Origin: a virus
Taxonomy: Duplodnaviria > Caudoviricetes
Length of the DNA stretch: 63,853 nt
IMG/VR virus record: IMGVR_UViG_3300035148_000271
Span: 1-63,853 of that record
Reading direction: 5' to 3' (one strand)
Below are positions 28,623-44,000 of the stretch, piece by piece (the stretch's first letter is position 1; each line of letters opens with the position of its first letter). The position numbers were made by a program, and so were the translations under genes. The notes below the pieces were generated by a model, which made no database searches, had not been told where the DNA came from, and worked only from the letters and a program-made list of their open reading frames with translations.

Positions 28623-28998
28623 CGAACCGTCCTGCTGGGGCGACGACAGCCGCATCACAGTCGGGAACAACTGCAATCTGGTGAACACGCTGTTCAACAC
28701 GGTTGGCGGCGACATCACGATTGGCGACTGGACGTTCTTCGGTCACAACGTGATGCTGCTGACCGGTAGCCACGATCCGCAGAAGGTTTGTGCAAAGCGG
28801 CAGGAATACCAAGGACACGGCGGTGACATCCGAATCGGAAATGGAGTCTGGATTGGCAGCGGGGCGATCATTCTCGGGCCATGCGAGATACAGGACGACT
28901 GCGTCATCGCGGCCGGGTCTGTGTGCCGGCCCGGCGTTTACATGCAAGGATTCATGTTTGCCGGCAATCCGGCGGTTCCCAAAAGAAGGGTGGTGTGA
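28606..28998 (+). CDS. Hexapeptide-repeat sugar O-acetyltransferase-like protein (130 aa)
   Basis: ITIGDWTFFGHNVMLLTGSH, IRIGNGVWIGSGAIIL, AGNPA. Confidence 0.85.
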   Translation: MRKAFDEPSCWGDDSRITVGNNCNLVNTLFNTVGGDITIGDWTFFGHNVMLLTGSHDPQKVCAKRQEYQGHGGDIRIGNGVWIGSGAIILGPCEIQDDCVIAAGSVCRPGVYMQGFMFAGNPAVPKRRVV

Positions 28999-29660
28999 TG
29001 TCAACGATGTCTCCGAAGGACAACTTGGAACGGCTGCTGAAGGGCACGAACTACTCGGAAAAGATGCCGTACGTGGACCGGGAGCCGACCTTCCGCGCCA
29101 TGTGCGAGTTCGTGAAGGCCCGCCAGCACAGTCTGGACACAGCCGGCAAGAAGGATCAGGTGGTGATTTTCGAGACAGGCTGTGTGCGCTCCTTCGAGGA
29201 TTTCGGGGCCGGCTACAGCACGGTCATCTTCGACACCCTGTTGCAGATGATGGGCAAGGGCTACCTGACCAGCGTCGACATCACCAAGCAGAACGTGAAG
29301 ATCGCCAAGGGGCTGATCAAGTGGAAGGGCAGCGAGGTGCTGTGCGACGACAGCCTCAACGCGCTGGGGCGCTGGTCCACTCCCATCGACCTGTTGTACT
29401 TGGACAGCTTCGATCTGGCGCTGAACGACGACACGCCGTCAGCCGAGCATCACCTGAAGGAACTGAAGCTGGCGCTGCCGCTGTTGCGCCGGCCGGCCAT
29501 GGTGGCGGTGGACGACAACTTCAGCGGCGAGTACCGACCCAAGGGCCACCGCTACAAGGGCAGCAAGGGCCGACTGATCCGCGACTACCTGACCGATCTC
29601 GGCCTGAAGCCGGTGTTGGATTTGCAGCAAACAGTCTGGCTGTTGCCGCCGAACAGTTGA
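28998..29660 (+). CDS. Class I SAM-dependent methyltransferase-like protein (220 aa)
   Basis: IFETG, TSVDI, DDS, IDLLYLDS, VAVDD motifs (Methyltransf_24-like). Confidence 0.75.
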   Translation: MSTMSPKDNLERLLKGTNYSEKMPYVDREPTFRAMCEFVKARQHSLDTAGKKDQVVIFETGCVRSFEDFGAGYSTVIFDTLLQMMGKGYLTSVDITKQNVKIAKGLIKWKGSEVLCDDSLNALGRWSTPIDLLYLDSFDLALNDDTPSAEHHLKELKLALPLLRRPAMVAVDDNFSGEYRPKGHRYKGSKGRLIRDYLTDLGLKPVLDLQQTVWLLPPNS

Positions 29661-29685
29661 CGCTAGGCATACCTTTCAGTACATT
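29657..29685 (+). promoter_or_regulatory. Sigma70-type promoter driving the ncRNA array and Ro60
   Basis: TTGACG-N17-TACATT; first RNA unit starts 10 nt after the -10 box. Confidence 0.8.
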
Positions 29686-29694
29686 TCGTTTCAT

Positions 29695-29782
29695 AGCAGT
29701 GGCGCAGGGTGGCGGTTACTTCTCATGCCTAGAGGCTAGGCCGATGGCCTAGCGACCGTACCGCTCCCGCTTGATCCCTGCT
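29695..29782 (+). ncRNA. Y-RNA-like unit 1
   Basis: Terminal stem AGCAG/CTGCT; conserved GTGGCG-YAG, CGGTTACTTC, CGCTTGATCCC; cargo hairpin GCTAGGCC/GGCCTAGC. Confidence 0.8.
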
Positions 29783-29791
29783 TACAGTTTT

Positions 29792-29861
29792 GATGGTGGC
29801 GCAGACGCCGGTTACTTCGCATAGAGGGTGAGAACCGTGCCGGCATCGCTTGATCCCCATC
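29792..29861 (+). ncRNA. Y-RNA-like unit 2
   Basis: Terminal stem GATGG/CCATC; same conserved motifs; minimal cargo. Confidence 0.8.
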
Positions 29862-29869
29862 TTGGTTTC

Positions 29870-29962
29870 GCCGTGGCGGTAGTTGCGGGTACTTCGGGAT
29901 GAAACCCTTCTTCGGAAGGGCCGCCGTTTCGACACGGCAAGTCCGCAACGCTTGATCCCGGC
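29870..29962 (+). ncRNA. Y-RNA-like unit 3
   Basis: Terminal stem GCCG/CGGC; inner stem GTTGCGG/CCGCAAC; UUCG hairpin and T-loop-like GCCGT-TTCGAC-ACGGC. Confidence 0.8.
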
Positions 29963-29969
29963 AGCAGTA

Positions 29970-30103
29970 TTGGTAGTGGCGTAGAGGTCGGTTACTTCGC
30001 CTTGTAAGCGAGAGGTCGGGGGTTCGAGTCCCCTCGGGTCGAAAGACTCGTAGCTCAGTCGGATAGAGCGCTTATCTAGCCGGTTTCGCCTGATCCCTAC
30101 CAA
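29970..30103 (+). ncRNA. YrlA-like Y RNA (unit 4) carrying a circularly permuted tRNA-Thr(UGU) mimic
   Basis: Stem TTGGTAG/CTACCAA; anticodon arm 29996-30012, variable loop AGGTC, T arm GGGGG-TTCGAGT-CCCCT, acceptor stem closed by GAAA, D arm GCTC-AGTCGGATA-GAGC. Confidence 0.9.
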
Positions 30104-30135: not shown

Positions 30136-31548
30136 ATGAAAACGAACAAACCGATCCGGGCCGCTGCCATCCAGACGCACGAAGGTGCGCCGGCCGTCCG
30201 CATCAACGCCGAAGCCCAACTGCGGCGCTCGGTCATGGCGTCCTTGCTGTGGGAAGACACGTTCTACGAGAACGGCGTCGACATCGCCACGCGCGTGCAG
30301 AAACTGGCCAAGGCAGTGCCGGCCGACACGCTGGCCGCCATCGCCATGGAAGCGCGGAACCAGATGTACCTGCGCCACATGCCGTTGCTGCTCGCCCGCG
30401 AACTGGCGCGGCACCCGAACCGCACGAATCCGGCCGTGGTGAAACACACCCTGTCGGCTGTGATCCAGCGTCCGGACGAACTGGGCGAGTTCCTGTCGCT
30501 GTACTGGAAGGACAAGCGCCAGCCGCTGTCGGCGCAGGTCAAGAAAGGACTGGCGGCAGCGTTCGCCAAGTTCGACGAGTACCAGTTGGCCAAGTACAAC
30601 CGCGACGGTGCGGTGAAGTTGCGCGACGTGGCCTTCCTGTCGCACGTCAAGCCGGGGATGCCGGCTGACGCTGCCGTACAGGTCGTCGAACGCAAGTACA
30701 AGAACGGCAGCGTGGCCAAGGTGCTGCGCCACCCGTACTCGACGGTCGGCAAACTGATTGACGGCACGTTGCCGACTCCGGACACGTGGGAAGTGGCGCT
30801 GTCGGCCGGCAAGGACAAGGCCGAGACGTTCCGGCGACTGTTGGATGAGGGCAAGCTCGGCGGGCTGGCGTTTCTGCGCAACCTGCGGAACATGGAGCAG
30901 GCCGGCATCACCAAGTCGGAACTGATCCAAGCGGTCGGCAACGTCCGCTTCAACAAGGTGCTGCCGTTCCGCTTCATCGCCGCTGCGCGGGCTGTGCCGG
31001 CGTGGGAAGACCTGATCGAGCCGCTGATGCTGAAGGCGGCCGAAGGACTGCCGAAGCTGAAAGGCCTGACGGTCCTGCTGGTGGACGTGTCGGGGTCGAT
31101 GGCCGACAAGCTGTCGGGCAAATCGGACCTGACCCGTCTGGACGCCGGGGCCGGGCTGGCGATCCTGCTGCGCGAAACCTGCGAGGAAGGCGCGATCTTC
31201 ACGTTCGACACCAGCATCAAGGCAATCCCGCCGCGTCGGGGCTTTGCCCTGCGGGACGCCATCGGCGCTCCGCGTGGCGGCACGGCGCTGGGCCATGCTG
31301 TTGTGCATGCCAATCAGGTCAAGGGCATGAAGCGCCTGATCGTCGTCACCGACGAGCAGTCGCATGACCGGGTCGGTGCGCCGGCCTGCGAGCAGGCCTA
31401 CATGATCAACGTCGGGGCGTACAAGAACGGCGTCGGCTACGGCAACGGCTGGACTCACATCGACGGCTGGTCGGAGAATGTGGTGCGTTACATCACCGCC
31501 TTGGAAGGGGCGACGGTGGAGGCAACCAATGACGACGAAACGGTGTAG
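30136..31548 (+). CDS. rsr: Ro60/Rsr-like TROVE domain RNA-binding protein with C-terminal vWA (470 aa)
   Basis: THEGAPA, LLWEDTFYE, IQRPDEL, FDEYQLAKYNR, TPDTWEV, LRNLRN, LPFRF, MIDAS DVSGSM and VTDEQ. Confidence 0.92.
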   Translation: MKTNKPIRAAAIQTHEGAPAVRINAEAQLRRSVMASLLWEDTFYENGVDIATRVQKLAKAVPADTLAAIAMEARNQMYLRHMPLLLARELARHPNRTNPAVVKHTLSAVIQRPDELGEFLSLYWKDKRQPLSAQVKKGLAAAFAKFDEYQLAKYNRDGAVKLRDVAFLSHVKPGMPADAAVQVVERKYKNGSVAKVLRHPYSTVGKLIDGTLPTPDTWEVALSAGKDKAETFRRLLDEGKLGGLAFLRNLRNMEQAGITKSELIQAVGNVRFNKVLPFRFIAAARAVPAWEDLIEPLMLKAAEGLPKLKGLTVLLVDVSGSMADKLSGKSDLTRLDAGAGLAILLRETCEEGAIFTFDTSIKAIPPRRGFALRDAIGAPRGGTALGHAVVHANQVKGMKRLIVVTDEQSHDRVGAPACEQAYMINVGAYKNGVGYGNGWTHIDGWSENVVRYITALEGATVEATNDDETV

Positions 31549-31889: not shown

Positions 31890-32143
31890 GCGACTTTCTC
31901 GACTTTTTTGCTCCACTGGCAATTGCCGCCGTCGTTCTGGTGGGCGGCATCATCGGAACACTTTGCCTGTACGAAGTGACCTTCGGTCGCTGGGGCTGTC
32001 AGGACTTCTCCAAGATCACCGGACTGCAGACGGAGTGGTCGCTGTCGCTGGGCTGCTACGTGAATGACAAGGGCCAGTGGATGAGCCGGGACGCCTTCAA
32101 CCAGCGCAATGTCCAGAACCGCCTGCAGGTCGAGGTTAAGTAA
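31886..32143 (+). CDS. Membrane protein (85 aa)
   Basis: N-terminal TM helix; ATGA coupling. Confidence 0.6.
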   Translation: MSDFLDFFAPLAIAAVVLVGGIIGTLCLYEVTFGRWGCQDFSKITGLQTEWSLSLGCYVNDKGQWMSRDAFNQRNVQNRLQVEVK

Positions 32144-32565
32144 TGGCGCTGACCAACCGCTTTGAGTCCAAGATAGAGCGCATTCCGGAAGGTGGATGCT
32201 GGGTTTGGATGGCCTCGTTGGATTCCAAGGGGTACGGCCAGATCAATCTGCGCGGCAAGATCGTGCGGGCGCACCGCCACATCTTTGGGCTGTTCGGCAA
32301 CAGCGTTCCAACTGGCATGGACTTGTGCCATCGCTGTGACAATCGCTCATGCGTAAATCCGGCACATTTATTCGTTGGTTCACGGCAAGACAATATGGAC
32401 GATGCCAAGAGCAAAGGCCGAAAACTCGGCCGGCCGACGGCGACCGTGTGCAAGCATGGCCACGTCAAAGCCGGCGCGAATCTTTACCTATGGCGCGGGA
32501 GGCTTGGGTGTCGAGCTTGTCGCAAAGCGAGCGACGACCGCCTTCATGGAAGATTGTCATGCTGA
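32143..32565 (+). CDS. HNH homing endonuclease (140 aa)
   Basis: CWVW...GYG...AHR...CHRCDNRSCVNPAHL...N..D; C-terminal CKHGH...CRAC. Confidence 0.92.
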   Translation: MALTNRFESKIERIPEGGCWVWMASLDSKGYGQINLRGKIVRAHRHIFGLFGNSVPTGMDLCHRCDNRSCVNPAHLFVGSRQDNMDDAKSKGRKLGRPTATVCKHGHVKAGANLYLWRGRLGCRACRKASDDRLHGRLSC

Positions 32566-33428
32566 CGAACAGGCTCAATCTCCCGGAGTCGATTGTTCAA
32601 GCGGTTTTGTCTGACCCGTATAAATCGGGCGGCGACATCTCTGTCACCCAACTGATCGCGCCGGCCTACCAGCGCAAGCTGCGACTGGAGCACCCCCTCG
32701 TCGAAGACGTGTCGGACCGCATCTGGTCGCTGGTCGGGCAGATCGGCCACGGCATCCTTGAGCGCATCCCTGTCTCCGACCATGTGCTGAAGGAAGAGCG
32801 CCTGTACATGCCGGTGTCCGGCCCCCGTGCCGAGTGGCGGCTGTCTGGTCAGTTCGACCACTTGGAGAACGGCGTCCTGTCCGACTTCAAGTTCACCTCG
32901 GTATGGGCGGCCAAGGACGGCGGCAAGATCGAATGGGAACAACAGTTGAACCTGTTGAAACTGTTGTGCGACCACGTCTACGCCGCCATCTACGACGGCC
33001 GCTACGAGGTCAACACCTTGCAGATCGTCGCCATCTTCCGCGACTGGCAGAAGAGCAAGGTCGGGGACGACGGCTACCCGGATACGCAGGTGGCCGTGCT
33101 GCCGATCCAGATGTGGGAGAAGGAACAGGCGGTCGCCTTCCTGCACGAACGTATCGCAGCGCACCAAGACCCGGACCCGCCGGTCTGTTCGGACGAGGAA
33201 CGCTGGAAGACCCCCGACCGCTACGCACTGATGAAGCCGGGCGGCAAGCGGGCGATCAAGCTGTTCGGCAACATGGAAGAGGCTGTGGCTTTCAAAGAGC
33301 AACAGCCGGATGCCAATACCCTTTGGATTGACAAGCGGGCTGGCGAATACCGTCGATGCGGGGCATACTGCGCCGTGTCACACGCCTGTCCCGCTTGGCA
33401 GAAAATGCTGAGCGATGCGCCCTTCTAG
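32559..33428 (+). CDS. PD-(D/E)XK (Cas4/RecB-like) exonuclease (289 aa)
   Basis: ISVTQL, G-x-x-x-H-x-x-LE, SGQFD...DFK, QLN, C-terminal Cys cluster. Confidence 0.85.
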   Translation: MLTNRLNLPESIVQAVLSDPYKSGGDISVTQLIAPAYQRKLRLEHPLVEDVSDRIWSLVGQIGHGILERIPVSDHVLKEERLYMPVSGPRAEWRLSGQFDHLENGVLSDFKFTSVWAAKDGGKIEWEQQLNLLKLLCDHVYAAIYDGRYEVNTLQIVAIFRDWQKSKVGDDGYPDTQVAVLPIQMWEKEQAVAFLHERIAAHQDPDPPVCSDEERWKTPDRYALMKPGGKRAIKLFGNMEEAVAFKEQQPDANTLWIDKRAGEYRRCGAYCAVSHACPAWQKMLSDAPF

Positions 33429-35075: not shown

Positions 35076-38000
35076 CTACTGGCGACTCTCGATTTCGGCC
35101 CGATAGAACCGCGCGTTCCACTCCCGCAACAGTTGCTGGCGCTGTTCCTCGACCTCCCGGCGGGCGCGTTCCTTCTCCGCGAACGACAGTTCCTTGTCTT
35201 CCGCGATCTGCACTTCCTGTAGGCGCAGGGAACGCATGGCCCGCTCGACGTTCTGCACGCTGCGGCCCAGCGAGGCAATCGTGGACCGCCGGTCGATCCG
35301 CTCCAGCACCTCGGGCCGGTCGCTGTCCGCGAACTTCTTCGCCTCGTCCAGCGCCTGCAAGGCCTGCTTCTTGGCTTCCATGAAGTAGGCGGTGTCGGAG
35401 CGCACGTTGCCGTGCTTGTACCACTGGCGGACGAACGGAATCTGATCCTTGCGGGCGACCTCGTCGTAGTTCAGTTCTGTCAGGGCGATGGCGCTTTGCG
35501 TCCCATCCATCAGGAACGATCCCAGTCCGCCGGTGTAGTAGCGGGCGAAGTTCTTGATCGTCTCCGGGCTGACGCTGATGGCCCCCGGGACCGACTTGGT
35601 GCCACCGGTGGCCTCGTTCAGCCATGTGGTGAACTGTTGCAGGGCTGTGCCCCGGGTGTTGCCCCAGTAGCGTTCGCTGTCCGGCACCGGCTGTCCTGAC
35701 AGCTTCTCCTCGTCCGGCATGAGGGGAGCGCCGGTCGCTTTCTTGTTGGACGCCAACTCAAACAGCGGGTCCAGCACCGTCGGCACCAAGGCCGCTGTCG
35801 GCTCTTCCATCGTGCCCAGCGGGTTGAAGTGCTGCGACAGGCTCATCAGTTGATCCAGCCCCACCGCAGACTGGGGGCGGCCCCGCCACAGGTCGGCAAT
35901 GCCGTAGCCCAAGTTCACGAAGAAGCCGTAGCCGTACGGCAGGGGAATCGTCCAGCGGTCCCCGGTGCCGTCGCCTTTCATAATGACCAGCGAGCGCTGC
36001 TTCTCGTAGCCCGGCAAGCGGTCCCAGTACGGGACTTCTTCCTCGTCCTTGTCGTTGGCTCCCAGCAGGGCGAACATGATCCCCAGCGCCACCAAGGCTC
36101 CGGTCATGGCGGCGAACTCGGCCGGGTTCTTCTTGGCCGCCTGCATGATCCGCGTGGTGCCTTGGACCGCCGGGTTGAAGAACAGGTACAGGCTCGACAG
36201 GATCGGCGTGAGTTGGCCCTTGCGGTTGAAGTTGACCGTCAGGTTCTTGGCGATGCTCGCCGCCTCGGCCTTGCTCTTGCCCTGCTCGACGGCGTTCTTG
36301 TAGGCCGACACCCGGATCGCGTTCTCGATCATGCCGTTGGCGGCCATCACCACGTCTTCCAGCTTCTGGACGGCTTCCTTGGTGGCGTACCACGCCTTGC
36401 GGCCGGTGGTCTGCGTGTGGGCCGCCTCCATCAGTGACTGAAGCTCCCGCACCCGCTCGTCCATGTCCCCGAAGATGTAGAAGCCGGCCTTGCCGCCTTC
36501 CTGCTGGTAGTCCAGATACCACTTGGCAGCGGGCGTCGTCTCGTCCTTGCGGAACTCCACGTCCCAAATCCCCTTCATCATGGGGAAGACATCCTTGGCC
36601 ACAGTGGCTGCGTACTTGGTCCCGCCGACGTTGCCGGCGTGGATCATGCCGGTCAGGAAGTCGCGCGTGAAGTTGATCGTGGTGAACACCGGGTTCAGGC
36701 TCGTCCACATCTTGGCGAGGAAGCGATTCACGCCGGCCCATGCCTGCATGATCCGGTTCACGTCCGCTGCGTCACGGTCGAACAGTCCGCCCTTCGCCAG
36801 CATGGCGTCGCGCATGCCCGGGTCTTTCAGCCAGATCGCGTACTCCTGCCCGTAGTGCTTGACGATGATGGTTTCACCCGGTCGGTCCAGTACCCGGTTG
36901 CTGTAGCGGACCTCACCCTCCAGCAGGCCGTGGGCGTTTACGGTGCCGCTCTTGTAGAACGACGCCATCTGCTCGATCTTGTTGACCGCCCACAGGGCCG
37001 GGTCCGGATTGGCCAGCACGAAGTTCAACAGCGCCTTGCCGACCTTGTTCTTCTCGGCCCGCACGATGGCGCGTTCGTGGTCGAGGATGATGTTCTCCAG
37101 AATCTGCCCGGCCCGGGATTCCCGGCCCTTCATGCGCAGTGACTCCGGACCCCGTACGTCGAATCCGGTGCCGGTGCCAGTGCCTTGCTGGCCCAGTTCG
37201 TCGATGATTTCAAAGCCCTTCAGCGGCACGTAGTTCTTGAAGCGCGACTGCCAGCCGTTGTAGACCGTGGGCGTGATCAGGCCGGCGTTGACCATGGTGT
37301 CGCGCGTCATCTGCGCGATGTTCCAGAAGCGATCAGCATGCTTCTTGAGCGTTGCGTAGTCCGGCGACTGCTGGAAGATTTGCAGGATGCGGGCGGCTTC
37401 CTTGTTGGTCATGCCCGAGCCGCCGTCCGGCATGGTCGGGTTGATCGCCGCAATCTCGCGGTTGCGTTCCTGTGCATGCGTGGCGTACATCAGCATCGCC
37501 ACGTCTTCCGGGGCCACGCCATCCTTGCGGACATCGTCCAGTGTCGGACGAACGATCTTGTCCTTGAACCGTTGCAGCTTGTAGGCGACCTTGCCGTGGT
37601 AGCGCTCTTCGGCCAGCACCACGTTGGCCGCTTCGCTGACCTGTCCGCCGGCGGCTTGGACGACCCGCTGCGCCACGCCCATGCGGTTGAACCTGTCCTG
37701 CAACAGTCGCTGGACTGTTTGCGTGCGGGTTTCGGCGGGCAAGCGGAAGTTGTAGCCCTGCACCGCCGGCGCACGGGCAAACTCCACGCCTTCCACAACA
37801 TGGGCCGGAACTGCCGGCCAGCCGTAGCGCTTGAGCATCGTGTACGTGCCGTTGCCATCCAGCACTGTGTACGTGCCGTCGCCGTTGGCTTCCACGTCAA
37901 TCGGGTCGCGCGGACTCAGCACGCCATCGGCCACGGCTTGGAAGCGCTTGGGCGAGTTCTGGCCGCCCTTCTGGTTCTCTTCCTCGGTCTTGCCGGACAC

Positions 38001-41000
38001 CAGCGCATTGATCGGAATCATCTGCGTGGACGAGTCCATCTTGAAGAACAGGCGCGGCTGGAACGGGATCGACGCCGGCACTTCCTGCGTGTCGATGACG
38101 CGCTTCATGTACGTCTTCACGTCTTCGCCCGGCAGGCGCGGCGCGTAGGTGCGCTGGAACAGCGACAACTGTGGCGGCGTCGCCTTGATCTGCTCGACGA
38201 CCTTCTTGAACTCGATGGGCTGCGCCAGCCGCCATTCGTTCACGTCGGTGTAGCCGTGGGCAATGGCCGCCTGCTTCAGCGCCGGCAGGTCTTCCTGCAT
38301 CGTCTGGCTGACGCGCTGGAAGTCCACACGCGGCATGGTGGCCAGTACGTTGCGGATGGCTTGGGCCGTCAGCCGGTAGCCGGCGTCATCGAACGGCGTG
38401 TCCTTGCTGATGTTCTCCGGATCGAGGTCCACCGTGGCGGCCTTCAGCCGGTCCATGGGAATTATTCCCATCAGTTCGGCTGTGTACGCACTGTTGTTTT
38501 CAGCCGGGAAACTGTAGACGTGCTGGATTTCGCCCTTCGTCCCGGACGTGTCGATGCCGATCCGGTCCGGCGTCCCTTTCCCCGTCAGCCCCTCGCCGCC
38601 GTTCATGGCGTCGCCAAGGCCCAGCGGCTTCAGGGCCGTGACCTTGTAGACGTAGACCGGGGCGTCTTCGTCGAACCCGACCGGGATCGGGCCGTCATAG
38701 CCGTCCGTGGCGGTCAGGAAGCGGGCCACTCCCTCGATGTTGCCGGCGTTGGTGGCAGCCAGTTGGCTTCGGTTCGCCTTGCGCAGGGCAAGGAACGCCT
38801 GTCCCACCTGTGGAGTGGACTGTGCATTCAGGTCCGCCATGCCACGCTGGAACAGGGGCAGGCCGCCGGCGACCTTCTCTTTCAGGTACGGCGTCAGCGG
38901 AAAGCCCTGTTGCATCGTCTGCTTGCGCTGCGCAATGTCCGCCAGTTCGGACTCGCGCCGCGCTTGCTCGTCGCGGGCTGCCTGCTCGGACAGCGTTTGC
39001 AGCACGATCACCCGTTGACCGCCTTCGTACTGCGCAACCTCCCACTCGTTGTCACGATTGCGTTCCACCGTGACCTGAACTTCTGCGCCGGCCGTTGCAT
39101 TGCGACGCGCCGCCAGACGCGTCGCCTCGGCCTCGGTCAGGTTCATTGCACTGTCGCCATCAACGATGGTTCCGGTGCCCGGCTCAAACGTGCCGTCATT
39201 CCAGTAGCGAATTACCTCCCACCACTTCGTCTGGCCATCGACCGTATACGGCTCGGCCCGGAACACGTACTTCGGTTTCGGAGAGGCCTGAATGTTCACG
39301 AACTGCGGATCGACCTGTACGCCGACATCCAGCTTCTGCAACAGCTTGTTCACGCGCAGCGGGACGATGGTGTCGTAGAAGGCCTTCATGCCGCCGCCGC
39401 CGACATCCAGTTGCTTGTCCTTGATGTGGCCGTGATCGTTCTCGGCCATCTGTTGCGCGATGTCCTTGCCGAACGCTTCGGCCAGTTGCTTGCCGTTCAA
39501 CTCGCCGCCGGCGTAGTTGGCGGTGACGATCTTTCCGGTGGCGCGATCCGCGATCAACGTCAGCATGTTGTCGCCATCGGCTGCCTGTACCAGATCGGCA
39601 TTGATCAGGATGTTGTTCGGGCCGCCGTTCCATCCAGACGGGTTCGGATACCACTGGATGTTCTTGACCACCCTGCTCAAGTTGTAGTGGCTGGCGTTCT
39701 GCGCTCCCGTCGCCCATGCAATCGCGTCGTAGTCGTTCTCGGTGCCGTACAGCACCATGCGCTTGATGGCCAGATCGACGTATTCGTTGGTGCTGCCAAC
39801 AAATGGGCCGGGAGCGGAACGATTAGCGCCAACCCTTTCAATCGCGCGTTCGACTTCGCCACGATCTCTTGATGGGAACACCATGCGCCCATCAGGGGAG
39901 CGAGCAACCCATGTTTCTTCCCCGATATGCGGCAAAGTGGCGCGAACGATTTCGTATTGTTCCTTGCCCCTTCCTTCGCGTACCTTGTCAGCCCAGTCAG
40001 ATTGAATCTCTTCGATGAACAGAATCTTCTTGCCGTCCGCATAGCGCGTCTTGAAGCGGATGTGGGCGACGACGTTCGGCACCTTGTCGCCGTAGTGCCC
40101 GCCCCGGTACTGCGGCTTGGCAAGGGGAAGCCGGTCAAGGCGCTTGTTGATGTCCATCAGCGCCGTCGTCGCCTCGTCAATCTGCCGGTTGATGTCAGCG
40201 ATTTCTTCCGGCGTCGCATTCGGGTGCGTCTTGATCCAGCTATCGGCTTGCGACAGCACGGCATGCTCGGTGCGCTTTTGCTGTTGTAGCGTCTCGATCA
40301 TTATGTCGACGTCACGTGCCGGGATATGCAGCAGTAGTTCGGTGTAACCATCACCACCCGGTAGCGTCCACTTCTCGTACTCGGGCCGGCCAACGACGGG
40401 CAGTTCGTCCTTGTTCAGTTGGTCGCGCGCTTCGAGGGCGGCCTGCATGTCCTCGAACGGACCGGCGGCGCGTTCCAATGTGCGGGTGCGATAGACGTAG
40501 TGCGGCGGGATCGGTGAGCGCCGGCCCTTCGCATCCATCACTTCGTACGTGCGCTGGTCGCGTAAGGCGGCGTCTTCCACCTTCACGCCGCTGGCGTCGA
40601 GGAAGTAGAGGATGTCGTCCTTGGTGAACTTGCGATTCGCCATGGACAACATGTCGAGCAGGCCAGACCAGTCGACCTCGGATTGCTTGACCTTGCCCTT
40701 GTTGACCCAGTTGCGCACCGTCGCAATCCAGCCTTGCGGCGGCAGCGTCTTGTCGGGCAGCGTCGATACTTCCTTGCTGAGTGCGCTGTAGAAGCGATTG
40801 AAGTCGAGGCTCGGATGCTTCTCTCTCCACTCCTGCGCGAGCGACAGGAAGAGCGGGAAGTTCTTCTGGACGAGGTCGTCCACATCCTTGTAGCCGGCCT
40901 TCTCCGCTTCGGCTTGCAGCCACACGTACTGGTCGCTGTTGTCCAGCGAGCGCGAGAAGTTGACGAGGTCGGCCGGGCGCAGGAACTTGCGCTTGCCCTT

Positions 41001-44000
41001 GTCGGCCAGCCGCAGTTCGCTGCGAGCGGGTTCGGGCAGGACGTTGGCCTTGTCGTGATCGAGGTACAGCAGGGGCGTGCCACCGTCTTTCGGCGGCTTC
41101 TCGTTCTTCAGCCACTTGGTAATGGAACCGGGACCGAGCCAGTAAGCGCTTTCGAGCGCATGTACTTCCTTGCCGTAACGCTCGCGTCCAGAGAAGGTGT
41201 TGGTGCGTCCCTCGACGTAGGTGTTCCTGCGCAGGATGGCGATCAACGGCTTGCCGTTCACCACCTGATCGGTAATGAACACCACCGAGTCGGTGCCGCC
41301 TGCCGACTTGAACACCGCCACCGGCCGCTCCAAGGACTTGCCGATGTCTTCCAACTGTTGGGCTGTCAGGCCGACGCGAACGCCGTACTTGCCGGTGACG
41401 ATCTTGCGCACCTTCTCGGGCGTGACCACCAGCGCCAGCTTCCTGATGAAGCCCAGCGCTCGCAGAATCGGCTTGCTCTCCATGACGCCCAGCGGGTACG
41501 GCTCGTACTCGCCGTCGTCCACGATCTTCTGGATTTCGGTACGACTGAACGCCACCGTCTCGGGCGGCTGTGTGATCGGTACGTCCTTGTTCAGGACGAC
41601 CGCCATGTTCTGGCGACGGTTGATGTAGCCGTCGAACCCGGCGTCGAGGATCGCGCTTTCCATCGCGTTCAGGCGCTGCGGCAGCGGCTGGTCGCGGTTG
41701 TAGTTCAGCGCCGGCGTGCCATCCCACAGGTTGTCGAGCGCCGCACGGTGGGCAACTGGCCCCAGCCCGGCTTCACGCTTCGGCAGTTCGCCCTTCTCGG
41801 ACAGGTAGAAGTAGACGCGCTTCTTGATGCGCGGGTCGGTGGACTGCGCCAGACGCGGCAGTTCCTCGCCCTTTATGCCGGTGCCGAACTTCGCGCCCGC
41901 CAACACAGTCCGTGGGCTGTGCGAGTAGTGGACCGCTTCGACTCGTTGCAGGTCGACGCCGATTGCCGGGTCGTTGGGATCGGGGTGGATGCTCCAGTCC
42001 GGGTCGTACTCGCCCGGCAGCATCATGTCCTGCTCCCAGCCCCGGGGCTTCAGGACGGTCTGGTCGGTCCAGACGCTGTGCTTGACGATCAGCTTGCGCA
42101 GATCGGCGGCAGACGTTTCCTTCACTGGCGCGTAGCCCATCACCTCCCGCAACGTGTCGGGCGTGTACCAGCGGTCGCTGATCGGCTCCCACACGTTGCC
42201 GGTCTGGCGGTCCTTGACGAGGCTGTGCCAGATGCGCAGCGGAGCCATGGGGTGGCCGTTGACTACGCCGAGGATCAGCGAGTAACGCTGTTCGTCCGTC
42301 TTATCGAGGAAGGCGTCGTCGAACGCAACCTTGCGGCCGGCTAGGACATGGCACTTCCCAAGTCGCTTCCGATCTTTAACGGCTTCAGCAGCGACAGCTT
42401 CAGCCCGGGTTCCAATGGGACTGCTTTCTGACTTACCGTACGGAACACTTTCCCACTTCTTGGTGCGGGCGAACTCCAGTTGGCCCTGCTCTGTGGGGCT
42501 GGTAGGCTGGACTGATTCAGTGATACCATTTGGTTGTTCCTTGGAGGTTGCGATGGCACTACCAGACAAGTTCCCGCCCGGCACCGAGTTCTTCGATTGC
42601 GCTGAAGGCACGCCTGTTTCGGTCACTTGGGAAGGCGACTTCCCGATTCCGTTTGCTTGGGACGCCGGCACCAAGCGCCCATTCAAATACACCACCGTCA
42701 TGTCGGACGGCGTGCCAATCGACGAGGCAGCGTTCCGCGACTTGGTCGCCGCCTCGGCATAGATCACGCGCGACTGCCGTACCGCGTTTTTGTAGATCAC
42801 TTCCTCGGGGAAGGTCAGGCGCTGGGTATACGGATCGCGCTTGCCGTCTAGGGCGCGAATGATTTCGTACCAGTAGTGACCGAACTCCTTGGTCAGCCCG
42901 CCTTCCTTGGCGTAGAACATGGCGGCCGTGTTGACCTGCACTTCGATCTTCATGCCGTCGCGGACCACGTAGATGAGTGCGTCCTTGTAGCCGGCCTTGT
43001 CCTGCCTCTTCTTCGACAGCCCTTCCTGCCAGCCGTTGCGCTTCAACTCCACCGCATCGAACCGCTTGCGCAACCGCCGCATGATGTCGGGCAACGCCGT
43101 ATTCACGTCATGCACGATGATGGTTGAGCGCAGGGCATCCTTCAGCTTGTAGGCATTGCCCTCGTAGTCCTCCATTACCTTTTCAAAGCCGCGCGGCACG
43201 CTCTTGATGGCGTGCTGCTTGGCTTCGGCCGGCACTACCCCGCCGGACTTCGCGGCCACCACATCCAGATCAGCCAGTACATCCGGGGCCAGCTTCTTGG
43301 CGTGTTCCAGTACCTGCTTCAGGGCGGCGTATGGCTTGGAGATAGACGGGTGCCGATCCATCTCCCGCTGCGACACCTGCTCGCCCTTGATCAGCGCCTT
43401 CTGCACGTCCTCGGCCCGCTGGAACGGCAGTTCGTCCGCAGGCGCGGCCTTGGGTTCGACCGGTTGCGCCGGGACCGCCTTCTTCTTCGCCGCTTTCTTT
43501 GCAACTTTGGGCGGGGCCGTGGCGGTCGCTCCCCCGGTCGCAGGGGCCGTCTCTTTGGCGGCCTGCTTTGCGACTTTTTCTGCGGCCTGCTTGGCGCGAT
43601 GGCGCTGTTCCCATTCCACGAAGGCGCGGGCCGACGCCTCGCGCATCTTCTGGATACTGCCCTCGCCTTTCAGGAAGCCGACGTTGATCATGGCCGAGTG
43701 CAACTTGTCGATCAGTTGCTTCACTGCCGTCATCATGCGTTTGGCGAAGGCAGTGTCCGGTGACAGTTCAAAGACCCGGTTCCAGAATCCTTGGTCTTCC
43801 CACATTTCGCCCGTCACCTCGGACGCAATCTCGTTGTCGAACACCAAGTCGATGTCGGATTGCGTGGCCGCGCCCTTCGACTCAATCATCATCTGCCGCC
43901 CAAGTTCTGCCTTGAACTTGGATACGTGCTTGGAATCAGCGTGCTGCTGCGCGGCTGCTTTCAGCGCGTCGTATAGGTCCGGGTGATGCACCTTCATCTG

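Follow-up and report, generated by a model that had tools for sequence, protein, structure and literature searches.

Does the tRNA-like element at positions 29996–30070 of this phage DNA share only the tRNA elbow known from bacterial Y RNAs, or does it hold a whole tRNA, anticodon arm included, in rotated order? The question matters because, after decades of work on Y RNAs and Ro60, a partner for the tRNA-like domain of YrlA is still being sought. The window, i.e., the whole stretch analysed, comprises 63,853 nt of one strand (IMG/VR record IMGVR_UViG_3300035148_000271, positions 1–63,853; Duplodnaviria, Caudoviricetes). An earlier note had described the element as a circularly permuted tRNA-Thr(UGU) inside the fourth unit of an array, and our direct sequence check located every element that it listed at 29996–30070. 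It had also taken YrlA mimicry of the D, T, and acceptor arms as established, which agrees with the available text of Chen 2014 (PMC4201824). The reading of the additional hairpin as an anticodon arm extends the YrlA model of that paper.

The element lies in an array upstream of a Ro60 gene, with the following features:

29657–29685, + strand: sigma-70-like promoter match TTGACG-17-TACATT directly 5' of unit 1 (a consensus match only; 1 found, 0.2 expected)
29695–29782, + strand: Y-RNA-like unit 1 (ends approximate), with scaffold stem, GGTTACTTC, branched distal part, and CGCTTGATCCC
29789–29858, + strand: Y-RNA-like unit 2 (ends approximate), with only a 5-bp/7-nt hairpin after TTAC
29866–29960, + strand: Y-RNA-like unit 3 (ends approximate), recognized by shared end motifs and fold
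29972–30101, + strand: Y-RNA unit 4, YrlA type, with scaffold stem and complete permuted tRNA module (Rfam match, folds)
30136–31548, + strand: Ro60 homologue, 470 aa (Pfam TROVE, 7e-18; phrog_850, 1.8e-47)

The placement of the module inside unit 4, as proposed earlier, is confirmed by the motifs GGKTACTTC and CGCYTGATCCC, which occur in exactly four copies each in the 63.9-kb window (0.29 and 0.16 expected, respectively). The copies alternate, with one GGKTACTTC per unit, and all of them fall inside 29714–30097. The hairpin of unit 2 is TTCGC-ATAGAGG-GTGAG (29816–29832). The Ro60 homologue also matched the Ro60 structures of Thermus phage phiLo (9KOP/9L5Y; E 1.7e-23), and its ORF starts 35 nt past the end of unit 4, on the same strand and within the 4 kb that characterizes the YrlA class. 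On the + strand, no terminator-like site was found from the end of the array to the start of the Ro60 ORF. The four units are probably co-transcribed with the phage Ro60 gene. The Rfam YrlA model (RF02553) matched unit 4 at 29985–30099 with 42.2 bits (E 4.8e-8), a weak but significant match below the gathering score of 69, and no match reached that score in the window or in 20 related loci. The 17 sequencing runs listed for this DNA are all DNA metagenomes, with small shares.

Unit 4 can be divided as follows:

29972–29991, + strand: scaffold 5' strand with GTGGCG/GGCGTAG (29976–29984), presumed Ro60-binding side, conserved in all four units
29992–29995, + strand: TTAC, the YUAY of YrlA RNAs (available text of PMC4201824), abutting the anticodon arm on its 5' side
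29996–30012, + strand: anticodon arm, positions 27–43, TTCGC (29996–30000) paired with GCGAG (30008–30012)
30013–30017, + strand: variable loop AGGTC, 5 nt, positions 44–48 (sequence; ARAGORN on the rotated form)
30018–30034, + strand: T arm GGGGG-TTCGAGT-CCCCT, positions 49–65 (sequence; covariation)
30035–30050, + strand: 6-bp acceptor stem CGGGTC-GAAA-GACTCG, its end closed by the GAAA tetraloop (30041–30044), without CCA
30051–30070, + strand: U8 and A9 (30051–30052), D arm GCTC-AGTCGGATA-GAGC (positions 10–25; 30053–30069), and G26 (30070)
30071–30101, + strand: 3' linker (CTTATC..) and scaffold 3' strand with CGCCTGATCCC (30087–30097)

The anticodon loop is CTTGTAA (30001–30007; C32, U33, U34, G35, U36, A37, A38) with the triplet TGT at 30003–30005. 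On the scaffold, GGCGTAG (29978–29984) corresponds to GGCGCAG in units 1 and 2 and GGCGGTA in unit 3; it resembles, but is not identical to, the YrlA motif GNCGAAN0-1G that Chen 2014 proposed as a Ro60 contact.

When the module was rotated (cut in the GAAA, with 30070 joined to 29996), in the kind of in-silico permutation suggested earlier, ARAGORN reported a 74-nt tRNA-Thr(tgt) with a standard cloverleaf, whereas it found no gene in the unrotated stretch or in the whole window. Compared with a canonical tRNA, the colinear order is lacking, while the cloverleaf and its conserved nucleotides appear upon rotation. Where a canonical tRNA has seven acceptor pairs and a free 3' end, the module has a 6-bp, GAAA-closed stem with no discriminator or CCA, which confirms the sealed acceptor end described earlier. 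The Rfam tRNA model gave a partial match of 21.8 bits to unit 4 (gathering score 29). The hairpin exceeds what chance would give: 17-mers that combine a 5-bp stem with U33 and R37 are found at ~0.001 of window positions, and relatives retain the hairpin through compensatory changes. With regard to isotype, the triplet and the ARAGORN call agree with the proposed tRNA-Thr(UGU); the module body is not particularly Thr-like: it was closest to Ile (0.75), followed by Val and Arg (both 0.74) and Thr (0.72), in a comparison set that includes ARAGORN calls that are themselves Y RNAs. Since the body is not isotype-specific, the label 'Thr' derives solely from the triplet. Folding energies were no better than those of shuffled sequences (z-scores of 0.52 and 0.23 for unit 4; −1.89, −0.02, and −0.35 for units 1–3), so that thermodynamics alone gives no support to the arm or to unit 4. 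The single-sequence minimum (−44.0) places the 29996–30012 hairpin in a shifted register, and the cloverleaf register (−43.6) lies 0.4 kcal/mol higher.

Relatives were collected with a spacing-pattern search of viral DNA (at least 119 stretches), from which 112 phage modules (104 unique) were parsed among the matches listed; the bacterial sample consisted of 120 stretches from many phyla, with 93 modules parsed. The pattern fixed TTAC, TTC (27–29), the 17+5 nt spacing, and GGTC, so that the geometry of these main samples is partly imposed. An unbiased, Ro60-anchored sample comprised 80 loci with 55 tRNA-like cores. Loops were counted in 94 phage modules, 10 of the 104 having been removed (8 with a stem of ≤3 bp, 2 for the D stem), and a further 8 with long acceptor inserts were left out of these to give an alignment of 86. 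A core-only scan for the share of cores with the arm (T arm, 12–40 nt, TAGCTCAG...AGAGC) was discarded because ordinary tandem tRNA genes dominated it and Ro60 was present in only 3/116 loci. Submitting all possible joins to ARAGORN was also abandoned as too permissive, since nearly any isotype could be obtained, and explicit parsing with exact rotations was used instead.

Among the matches listed, a Ro60 homologue was present in the fetched DNA of 97 of the 112 phage modules, always on the same strand, and the modules were mostly 46–1200 nt upstream of it. For bacteria, 64/93 modules were in Ro60 loci (64/64 on the same strand). The permuted-tRNA architecture is thus widespread in phages and bacteria, and the modules found near Ro60 are always on its strand. 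Among the gene neighbours of 140 loci, no family except Ro60 was common to more than a few; the larger neighbour clusters were antisense ORFs inside Ro60.

The alignment of 86 phage modules (among the matches listed) had 98.4% of cells paired (77.3% in shuffles) and a covariation of 0.581 (0.148 in shuffles), a value reached by 0/500 shuffles, with compensatory changes in all four helices. Stem pairs 30–40 and 31–39 occurred as four pair types each, with 17 and 51 double changes, respectively, and were never unpaired. U8, A9, G10, A14, G15, one G of the D-loop GG, and A21, which lay outside the search pattern, were invariant in 86/86 of these modules. A de novo RNAalifold consensus recovered the same four hairpins. 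ARAGORN called a tRNA on 100/104 rotated phage modules (among the matches listed) and 79/92 bacterial ones, with the anticodon at loop positions 3–5 in 99 and 79, respectively. The earlier proposal of a tRNA opened between positions 26 and 27 and grafted onto a scaffold is thus backed by covariation, by ARAGORN on rotated sequences, and by the consensus fold. In the unbiased Ro60-anchored sample, a full anticodon arm was detected in 26 of the 55 tRNA-like cores (25/80 loci), the hairpin being degenerate or absent in the remainder; the arm is therefore dispensable for the family.

The loops carry the hallmarks of anticodon loops. Among the matches listed, the 94 phage modules had U33 in 92, R37 in 92, and A38 in 89 cases, U36 was followed by A37 in 64/64, and G36 by G37 in 22/23. 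The rule was looser in bacterial modules (10/73 exceptions). In real tRNAs, U36-A37-A38 or G36-G37-A38 is the form needed for modification at position 37. On a Ro60 tree of 77 loci (phage modules among the matches listed), G36 and G37 switched jointly in ~10.6 of 11 independent pairs, and opposite switches did not occur (p ~0.001); position 33 changed once and position 38 three times, compared with 32 times for position 34 and 35 times for position 35. Position 26 of a tRNA pairs with position 44 at the top of the anticodon stem. The 94 phage modules (among the matches listed) contained G26/A44 in 66 and A26/T44 in 17 cases, and both positions switched jointly in ~6 of 11 pairs on the tree, never oppositely (p ~0.03), which fits the 26-44 pair of a true anticodon stem.

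The triplet itself behaves differently. Loops unconserved and random among homologues had been named as evidence against the permuted tRNA, and a survey for anticodon bias had been suggested. U33, R37, A38, and the 36–37 coupling are kept, but the triplet takes 27 different forms in the 94 phage modules among the matches listed; GTT, TGT, and GCT are strongly over-represented in the same set (44/94), so that a bias is present, but the mean rate of triplet change is close to neutral. Across 23 disjoint close pairs picked by Ro60 identity, mean triplet divergence was 0.333 vs. 0.254 at 4-fold sites, as would also be expected of an unread loop. (A previous version of this test on nearest neighbours with differing triplets was biased in its selection and was replaced.) GTT was retained in five pairs at 4-fold divergences of 0.26–0.57; as a counter-case, 2/3 triplet bases differed at a divergence of 0.07. 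Outside the loop, two loci (L004 and L006) agree at 98%, but their loops read CTGTTAA and CTGTGGA. Given the retained coupling and the five diverged pairs, the loop may have the decoy or sensor role that the earlier note suggested.

We lean slightly towards interpreting 29996–30070 as the effector module of a YrlA-class Y RNA, a sealed whole-tRNA display on Ro60 whose loop would serve as bait or decoy. By analogy with other Y RNAs, the RNA of unit 4 very probably binds Ro60 through its scaffold. We put the loop as a working specificity element at a little short of an even chance.

A rather unlikely alternative is a genuine arm that has the fold of an anticodon arm but an unread triplet, a relic of the ancestral tRNA of YrlA that was kept for folding or nuclease resistance and lost elsewhere. 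This would agree with the near-neutral mean divergence of the triplet, with the incomplete occurrence of the arm in Ro60-linked cores, and with class-II anticodons (Ser GCT, Leu TAG/CAG) on the same class-I body. In addition, S. Typhimurium YrlA works without an anticodon arm (available text of 10.1101/312249), and a stable tRNA fold has been proposed to shield Y RNAs from nucleases (Chen 2014, PMC4201824). It is more difficult to reconcile with the excess of GTT, TGT, and GCT, with GTT held across high synonymous divergence, and with the strict U36-A37 and G36-G37 coupling and its ~10 independent joint switches, for which there is no obvious folding reason and which match the position-37 modification determinants of real tRNAs.

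It is improbable that the hairpin at 29996–30012 is a long variable arm, with the scaffold stem replacing the anticodon stem. Variable arms have short loops. The hairpin has 5 bp and a 7-nt loop with U33, R37, and A38, and the variable loop after it has the standard 5 nt, the first of which co-varies with position 26. Between G26 and the scaffold 3' strand lie at least 6 unpaired nucleotides, which prevents the scaffold from stacking directly under the D stem. Nonetheless, this is the published YrlA geometry: in the available text of Chen 2014 (PMC4201824), YrlA has no anticodon loop, the hairpin is a less-conserved 'V arm', and YUAY starts the 'V loop', and the scaffold extends the anticodon stem in the crystal structure of S. 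Typhimurium YrlA (10.1101/312249). CcrColossus, which PMC12135203 (citing Chen 2014) names as a phage with Y RNAs, has short, class-II-like hairpins with 4-nt loops in its units D and E and no 5/7/5 arm. S. Typhimurium YrlA (RF02553, structure 6CU1; PMC4201824, 10.1101/312249) resembles unit 4 in lying beside Ro60 on the same strand, in having a closed 6-bp acceptor stem between a T arm on the 5' side and a D arm on the 3' side, and in its YUAY motif and tRNA tertiary nucleotides; it has already been likened to a circularly permuted tRNA. It differs in that its RNA ends exit via the anticodon stem, without an anticodon loop, whereas those of unit 4 exit at 26/27 and leave a full 5-bp/7-nt arm.

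The 'V' stem-loop YrlAs of Chen 2014 (Fig. 1; P. fulva, R. etli, M. smegmatis, and mycobacteriophage ET08) have a fourth hairpin between YUAY and the T arm, and probably share the architecture of unit 4. The available main texts include no description of U33, R37, A38, 36–37 coupling, or 26-44 for this stem-loop. Our literature search returned no paper naming the hairpin an anticodon arm; such phage RNAs may be included in supplementary figure S1 and tables S1–S2 of Chen 2014. Overall, the comparative data favour an anticodon arm over the published 'V arm'.

Very improbable is a cryptic permuted tRNA gene, in which the scaffold would be excised, the ends joined, the acceptor loop opened by RNase P or Z, and CCA added to give a working tRNA-Thr(UGU). 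Permuted tRNA genes of the red alga Cyanidioschyzon merolae and one archaeon also place the 3' half before the 5' half and begin with a closed acceptor end, and they mature via a circular intermediate with a splicing endonuclease and ligase. Nothing indicates such processing of unit 4, and their break point and host domain differ. Red-algal maturation is discussed in 10.1101/312249, whose available text adds that the required type of splicing endonuclease has not been reported in bacteria, and no conserved ligase or endonuclease gene was found beside the cassette in the 140 loci. M. smegmatis YrlA, too, is a Ro60-bound Y RNA that bears a tRNA-like module, and it is encoded upstream of rsr with a second Y RNA alongside; its 7-bp acceptor stem is opened in vivo, being cleaved by RNase P and gaining CCA, in contrast to the 6-bp, GAAA-sealed stem here, and 6-bp YrlA was not cleaved by RNase P (available text of Chen 2014, PMC4201824). 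In favour of maturation, N-CCA directly follows a 7-nt 3' strand in 6/70 phage (among the matches listed) and 8/62 bacterial modules, with ~1 expected. Against it, tetraloops, mostly UUCG or GNRA, close the acceptor in 43/95 phage modules (among the matches listed), and the many triplets of the phage modules sit on the same body. Maturation into a real tRNA, which the earlier note had raised, thus appears unlikely for this copy, given its closed 6-bp stem, missing CCA, and generic body, and for most relatives, given their tetraloops. Permuted (two-piece) tmRNA (RF04321) is another bacterial or phage tRNA-like domain in permuted order, but its CCA end is free, it is charged, and it lacks an anticodon arm. 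We recorded one such match in Brevundimonas phage Gurke (L017:6297-6642). Lastly, a chance resemblance or functionless, decaying tandem-tRNA pseudogene, to which the unremarkable fold energies would correspond, is already contradicted by the four-helix compensatory changes in the 86 aligned modules (among the matches listed), the invariant tertiary-contact nucleotides, and the strict linkage to Ro60 and its strand.

The analysis establishes the anatomy of the module, its conservation and covariation, and its linkage to Ro60. Unit 4 (about 29972–30101) is the last predicted RNA of an array probably co-transcribed with Ro60, and its module is a complete, circularly permuted class-I tRNA. The RNA ends leave the tRNA between 26 and 27 and pair into the presumed Ro60-binding scaffold, and the GAAA tetraloop seals the acceptor end, so that the RNA cannot be charged or enter translation. 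Under the bait or decoy reading, the whole tRNA surface, including an anticodon loop held in a position-37-modifiable form (U36-A37-A38 or G36-G37-A38), would be displayed on the Ro60 particle to attract something that recognizes anticodon loops. In a phage this would most plausibly be a host anticodon nuclease, with a synthetase or modification enzyme as alternatives. In the available texts, phage tRNAs counter tRNA-targeting defences (PMC10264068; PMC11555353), the Salmonella rsr-yrlBA-rtcBA operon responds to damaged tRNAs (PMC7790460), and YrlA is modified by TruB and DusA (PMC4201824).

Provided that the hairpin is a genuine anticodon arm, many of the YrlA RNAs would be whole tRNAs in rotated order, beyond elbow mimicry, and would offer direct sequence support for an origin of YrlA from tandem tRNAs. 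The search for the partner would widen to anticodon-loop readers, and two predictions would follow: position 37 should carry t6A or m1G, and binding or cleavage should depend on the anticodon. A Y RNA with an anticodon arm would also explain why several deposited phage genomes have a 'tRNA-Thr', 'tRNA-Gln', or 'tRNA-Ser' annotated a short distance before Ro60, entries that probably represent Y RNAs. A further generalization, in our view unlikely, is that phage and bacterial Ro60 particles carry sealed, isoacceptor-specific tRNA baits with a loop competent for t6A37 or m1G37, which would be the face shown to an enemy or partner that reads anticodons, be it a nuclease, a synthetase, or a modification enzyme. 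If so, triplet switches between close relatives (UGU/GUU, GUU/GUG, CUG/UAG) would retarget the bait, and the phage Ro60–Y RNA cassette would be a decoy or cleavage sensor against tRNA-cutting defences.

The single 63.9-kb contig that forms the window is the entire genome of its record, and its phage character is indicated by PHROG families near the site and by phage genomes as the closest DNA matches. On the minus strand (35076-46145) it also encodes a large polyvalent phage protein of 3689 aa, in which LPD38 and MuF_C domains were recognised. The locus of interest is arranged as follows:

28881-29660, methyltransferase-like ORF, 5' of a 440-nt non-coding stretch
29972-30101 (approximate), + strand, unit 4, the last of the Y-RNA-like units in that stretch
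30136-31548, + strand, Ro60 homologue of 470 aa (Pfam TROVE, 7e-18; phrog_850 'RNA-binding protein', 1.8e-47)

The Ro60 ORF also matched its counterpart in Thermus phage phiLo, for which structures have been determined (9KOP/9L5Y; E 1.7e-23). The non-coding stretch between the two ORFs consists of four tandem units, all starting with GTGGCG...GG(T/G)TACTTC and ending with CGC(T/C)TGATCCC; the start and end motifs occur four times each in the window, all in the array and in alternation. A promoter-like site (consensus match) was found upstream of unit 1, and no terminator-like site was found between the array and Ro60. Bacterial and phage Y RNAs have the same layout: in the available text of PMC4201824, several RNAs lie 5' of Ro60, and in M. 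smegmatis a single precursor is processed. An HNH endonuclease and an exonuclease (phrog_2139), at 32143-32565 and 32349-33428, lie ~600-800 nt downstream of the window Ro60, and in Microbacterium phage FuzzBuster an annotated exonuclease (locus L003:791-1432) is directly upstream of the Y RNA and Ro60.

The earlier note had placed a tRNA-like module in rotated order at 29996-30070 of unit 4, and each of its elements was found there. When the module was permuted in silico (cut in the GAAA loop, 30070 joined to 29996), ARAGORN returned a 74-nt tRNA-Thr(tgt); it found no tRNA in the unrotated module or in the whole window. Rfam gave no match in the window at gathering thresholds. With E-value thresholds, the top match was YrlA (Y RNA-like A) at 29985-30099 (42.2 bits vs. 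gathering 69; E 4.8e-8), and a partial tRNA match at 29980-30036 was weak (21.8 bits vs. gathering 29; E 0.051). The Rfam YrlA model pairs the sequence 5' of the variable loop with that 3' of the D arm; this pairing is poor in the window and is replaced by a local hairpin, TTCGC/GCGAG. Single-sequence MFE prediction gave the hairpin in a shifted register, with the cloverleaf register only 0.4 kcal/mol costlier, and fold energies of the window units were no better than those of shuffles. Fold energy gives no support, and the case therefore depends on comparison with relatives.

Comparison by blastn with phage genomes identified the same cassette in Xanthomonas, Xylella, Caulobacter, Brevundimonas, and Microbacterium phages. 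The last unit of Xanthomonas phage 10KY502B reads TTCGA-CTTGTAA-TCGAG, in which a C-G pair of the window module has become A-T, a compensatory change, and the corresponding unit of its close relative Tenjo has the loop CTGTTAA. Arms occur in two of the five CcrColossus units (loops ATCTGGA and CTGTTAA), and CcrPW has ATTAGGA where CcrColossus has ATCTGGA. A search pattern whose only fixed parts are TTAC, TTC, GGTC, their spacing, and the T-loop start retrieved at least 119 stretches from viral sequences and at least 120 from bacterial genomes (including Streptomyces, Kitasatospora, Amycolatopsis, Bradyrhizobium, Caulobacter, Paenibacillus, Bacteroidota, and Acidobacteriota). Among the matches listed, 128 viral ones yielded 112 parsed modules (16 were too near locus ends), of which 104 were unique; 94 had a stem of >=4 bp and a standard D stem, and 86 were aligned after removal of 10 whose stem was weak or whose D stem was odd, and of 8 with an acceptor insert >30 nt. 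For bacteria, 93 modules were parsed, with 28 lacking a closed acceptor plus D arm (among the matches listed). A generic 'T arm ... D arm' pattern was rejected, as it returned mostly tandem tRNA genes, with Ro60 in 3/116 loci.

Among the matches listed, a Ro60 homologue was present in the fetched DNA for 97/112 phage modules, on the same strand in all, and most of the linked modules were 46-1200 nt upstream of Ro60 (16 were just downstream); for bacteria, Ro60 was in the locus for 64/93 modules (same strand, 64/64). Several conserved features lie outside the search pattern: TA at positions 8-9 (94/94 phage modules) and a closed acceptor hairpin in all but a few, both among the matches listed, and U8, A9, G10, A14, G15, one G of the D-loop GG, and A21, invariant in 86/86 aligned modules. 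The Rfam YrlA model at gathering threshold gave no matches in 20 loci holding such modules; the curated model fails to capture this class.

Across the 86 aligned modules, 98.4% of paired cells were complementary, vs. 77.3% when shuffled and 27-54% with slid partners, and the covariation score of 0.581 (0.148 shuffled) was reached in 0/500 shuffles. The two anticodon-stem pairs left free by the pattern showed no failures, with 30-40 found as GC 69, CG 6, UA 6, and AU 5, and 31-39 as CG 35, AU 32, UA 13, and GC 6. RNAalifold predicted the same four hairpins unaided from 45 full-length units. After rotation, ARAGORN called 100/104 phage and 79/92 bacterial modules as tRNA (among the matches listed), with the anticodon assigned to loop positions 3-5 in 99 of the phage and all 79 of the bacterial calls. 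The loop shows anticodon-loop hallmarks. U33 (92/94), a purine at 37 (92/94), and A38 (89/94) are kept in phage modules, as is the coupling of positions 36 and 37, and the triplet varies, with 27 forms at positions 34-36 (GTT 20, TGT 12, GCT 12, TGG 6, others; 94 modules among the matches listed).

The coupling is strict: in the 94 phage modules, U36 was followed by A37 in 64/64, G36 by G37 in 22/23, and C36 by A37 in 5/5 cases. U36-A37-A38 is the determinant of t6A37, and G36-G37 that of m1G37. On a FastTree phylogeny of Ro60 from 77 loci, position 33 changed once and position 38 three times, vs. 32 and 35 times for positions 34 and 35, and G36 and G37 switched jointly in ~10.6/11 independent pairs and never in the opposite sense (p ~0.001). 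Two old paralogues, one G36-G37 and one U36-A37, are excluded as the source of this pattern by loci L004 and L006, which are 98% identical outside the loop and carry CTGTTAA vs. CTGTGGA, and by several G36-G37 modules whose nearest neighbour is a U36-A37 module. Position 26 and the first base of the 5-nt loop after the hairpin are G/A in 66 and A/T in 17 of the 94 modules and switched jointly in ~6/11 independent pairs, never oppositely (p ~0.03), as would be expected if that base is position 44, pairing with 26 atop the anticodon stem.

Covariation, loop hallmarks, and the ARAGORN calls on rotated modules together support the proposal of a tRNA with an intact anticodon arm, opened between positions 26 and 27 and grafted onto the scaffold, the stem formed by the two RNA ends. 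The module is a YrlA-type Y RNA variant. YrlA was defined by Chen et al. 2014, the available text of which lists 22 phages (PMC4201824). According to the available text of Wang et al. 2018 (10.1101/312249), where the S. Typhimurium module was solved, YrlA has no anticodon loop, the majority of YrlAs probably look like tRNAs in circular permutation, and a cited model derives YrlA from a dimeric tRNA transcript, with the first tRNA's anticodon arm absorbed into the scaffold. Therefore, tRNA mimicry and a permuted appearance were already known. In the main texts that our literature search covered, the hairpin was nowhere presented as a complete anticodon arm evolving by rules of its own, nor was a break point at 26/27 described. 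Judged from comparative sequence data, the structural interpretation is supported and would refine the published YrlA model. In the Salmonella crystal structure the scaffold continues the D stem, whereas in window-type modules at least 6 unpaired nt separate G26 from the scaffold 3' strand, which therefore cannot simply extend the D stem. The scaffold 5' strand at 29976-29995 (GTGGCG-TA-GAGGTCGGTTAC) resembles a degenerate acceptor strand and U8-A9, followed by a D arm without a stem, consistent with derivation of the module from the inner halves of two tandem tRNAs. Unit 2 has a 5-bp/7-nt hairpin right after TTAC (29816-29832, TTCGC-ATAGAGG-GTGAG; U at loop position 2) and no T, acceptor, or D arm; it resembles a Y RNA reduced to an anticodon arm, or else what is left of a tRNA-like unit.

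In a pattern-independent sample selected by Ro60 similarity alone (the best 80 of 555 confirmed relatives), 45/80 viral loci held a strict tRNA-like core on the Ro60 strand (55 cores), and 26/55 cores, in 25 loci, had a hairpin with >=4 bp, U33, and R37. The others had degenerate hairpins, 8-nt loops, or, as in Salmonella YrlA, none. The arm is therefore common but not obligatory, and arrays often combine units with and without it. Some units, among them D and E of CcrColossus (L002:1640-1960) and others in loci L018, L019, and L020, have Leu-like D arms of the class-II type, GCGG-AATTGGTAG-ACGC, and a short 4-nt-loop hairpin before the T arm without a 5/7/5 arm. One array therefore mimics several tRNA kinds.

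Genes for tRNA-Thr, tRNA-Gln, and tRNA-Ser are annotated immediately 5' of Ro60 in deposited phage genomes, and ARAGORN calls there were tRNA-Glu(ctc), tRNA-Asn(gtt), and tRNA-Ser(gct). The sites are:

L001:1506-1573 (10KY502B, OQ622092), annotated tRNA in the deposited record; passes Rfam tRNA at 33.3 bits
L002:1171-1238 (CcrColossus, JX100810), annotated tRNA in the deposited record
L017:2721-2795 (Gurke, ON529850), annotated tRNA in the deposited record
L001:1285-1354 and L016:2003-2073, further such calls

Each call is pieced together from the 5' strand of the Y RNA, a D region with defects, the anticodon and T arms, and the 3' strand of the acceptor stem; these are probably Y RNAs misread as tRNA genes. 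L004 also has a normal tRNA-Glu(ttc) gene between Y RNA and Ro60 (L004:1749-1825; Rfam 70.5 bits), for which ARAGORN found no counterpart in the close relative L006. Brevundimonas phage Gurke encodes a permuted tmRNA (L017:6297-6642; RF04321, 57.7 bits vs. gathering 47) among tRNA genes ~2 kb downstream of Ro60.

With regard to function, the scaffold would, like that of other Y RNAs, bind to the outer face of the Ro60 ring; this position is established in the available text of PMC12135203 for Xenopus, Deinococcus, Salmonella, and phage phiLo. The distal module is predicted to adopt the L shape of a tRNA, given its invariant tertiary nucleotides and the known fold of Salmonella YrlA, and would display its elbow and anticodon loop to tRNA-binding proteins. 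Since the acceptor end is closed, the RNA would be neither charged nor attacked from its 3' end. Our tentative reading, held at slightly less than even confidence, is that the anticodon loop functions as a specificity determinant, acting as decoy or bait toward some factor that reads anticodons. In a phage, the obvious candidates for this factor would be anticodon nucleases of the host. In the available texts, phage tRNAs are proposed or shown to counter such tRNA-targeting defences (PMC10264068; PMC11555353), and damaged tRNAs induce the Ro60 operon of Salmonella (PMC7790460).

The main rival, which we consider unlikely though substantial, is that the arm persists as an inherited structure with a triplet that nothing reads. 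Evidence on triplet reading is mixed. In favour are the strict coupling of positions 36 and 37, the marked over-representation of GTT, TGT, and GCT that the proposed survey of anticodon bias revealed, and the retention of GTT in five pairs with 26-57% Ro60 4-fold divergence. A change of 2/3 triplet bases separates 10KY502B from Tenjo although their 4-fold divergence is only 7%, which also counts in favour. Against it, in 23 disjoint close pairs, triplets differed by 0.333/site vs. 0.254 at 4-fold sites (0.073 for the rest of the module and 0.098 for other loop positions), so average triplet change is near the neutral rate. In addition, the arm is absent or degenerate in about half of cores (best 80 of 555 loci), Ser and Leu triplets occur on a class-I body, the unit 4 body resembles tRNA-Thr no more than it does the tRNAs for Ile, Val, or Arg, and no conserved neighbour or partner gene accompanies the cassette across 140 loci. 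Kitasatospora modules (L173, L189, L190, L203, L167, L216, L238, L240) are nearly identical except in the loop (CTCCGGA, CTCCTCA, CTGTCAA, CTCTTAA, or CTGTTAA); triplet turnover is therefore not phage-only. In unit 3 of 10KY502B (L001:1309-1384; D arm GTCT-AGTGGCTTA-GGAC, 4-nt variable loop TGAC, loop ATCTCAA), body and triplet seem to agree, the D arm being Glu-like and CTC a Glu triplet.

Maturation of the window copy into a true tRNA, also raised earlier, is very improbable, given its 6-bp acceptor stem sealed by a GAAA loop. Among the matches listed, tetraloops close 43/95 phage modules (TTCG 9, GCAA 7, GAAA 7, GTAA 4), and stems of 6, 7, or 8 bp are commonest. N-CCA directly follows a 7-nt acceptor 3' strand in 6/70 phage and 8/62 bacterial modules, vs. 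~1 expected by chance (L002, L019, L042, L132, L140, L210, and L242 are included). These modules are a real minority, and the window copy belongs to the sealed majority. They recall M. smegmatis YrlA, which is RNase P-cleaved and CCA-tailed, and may be opened and tailed likewise. The proposed refinement alters the picture of what the effector domain of YrlA presents, and it yields testable predictions.
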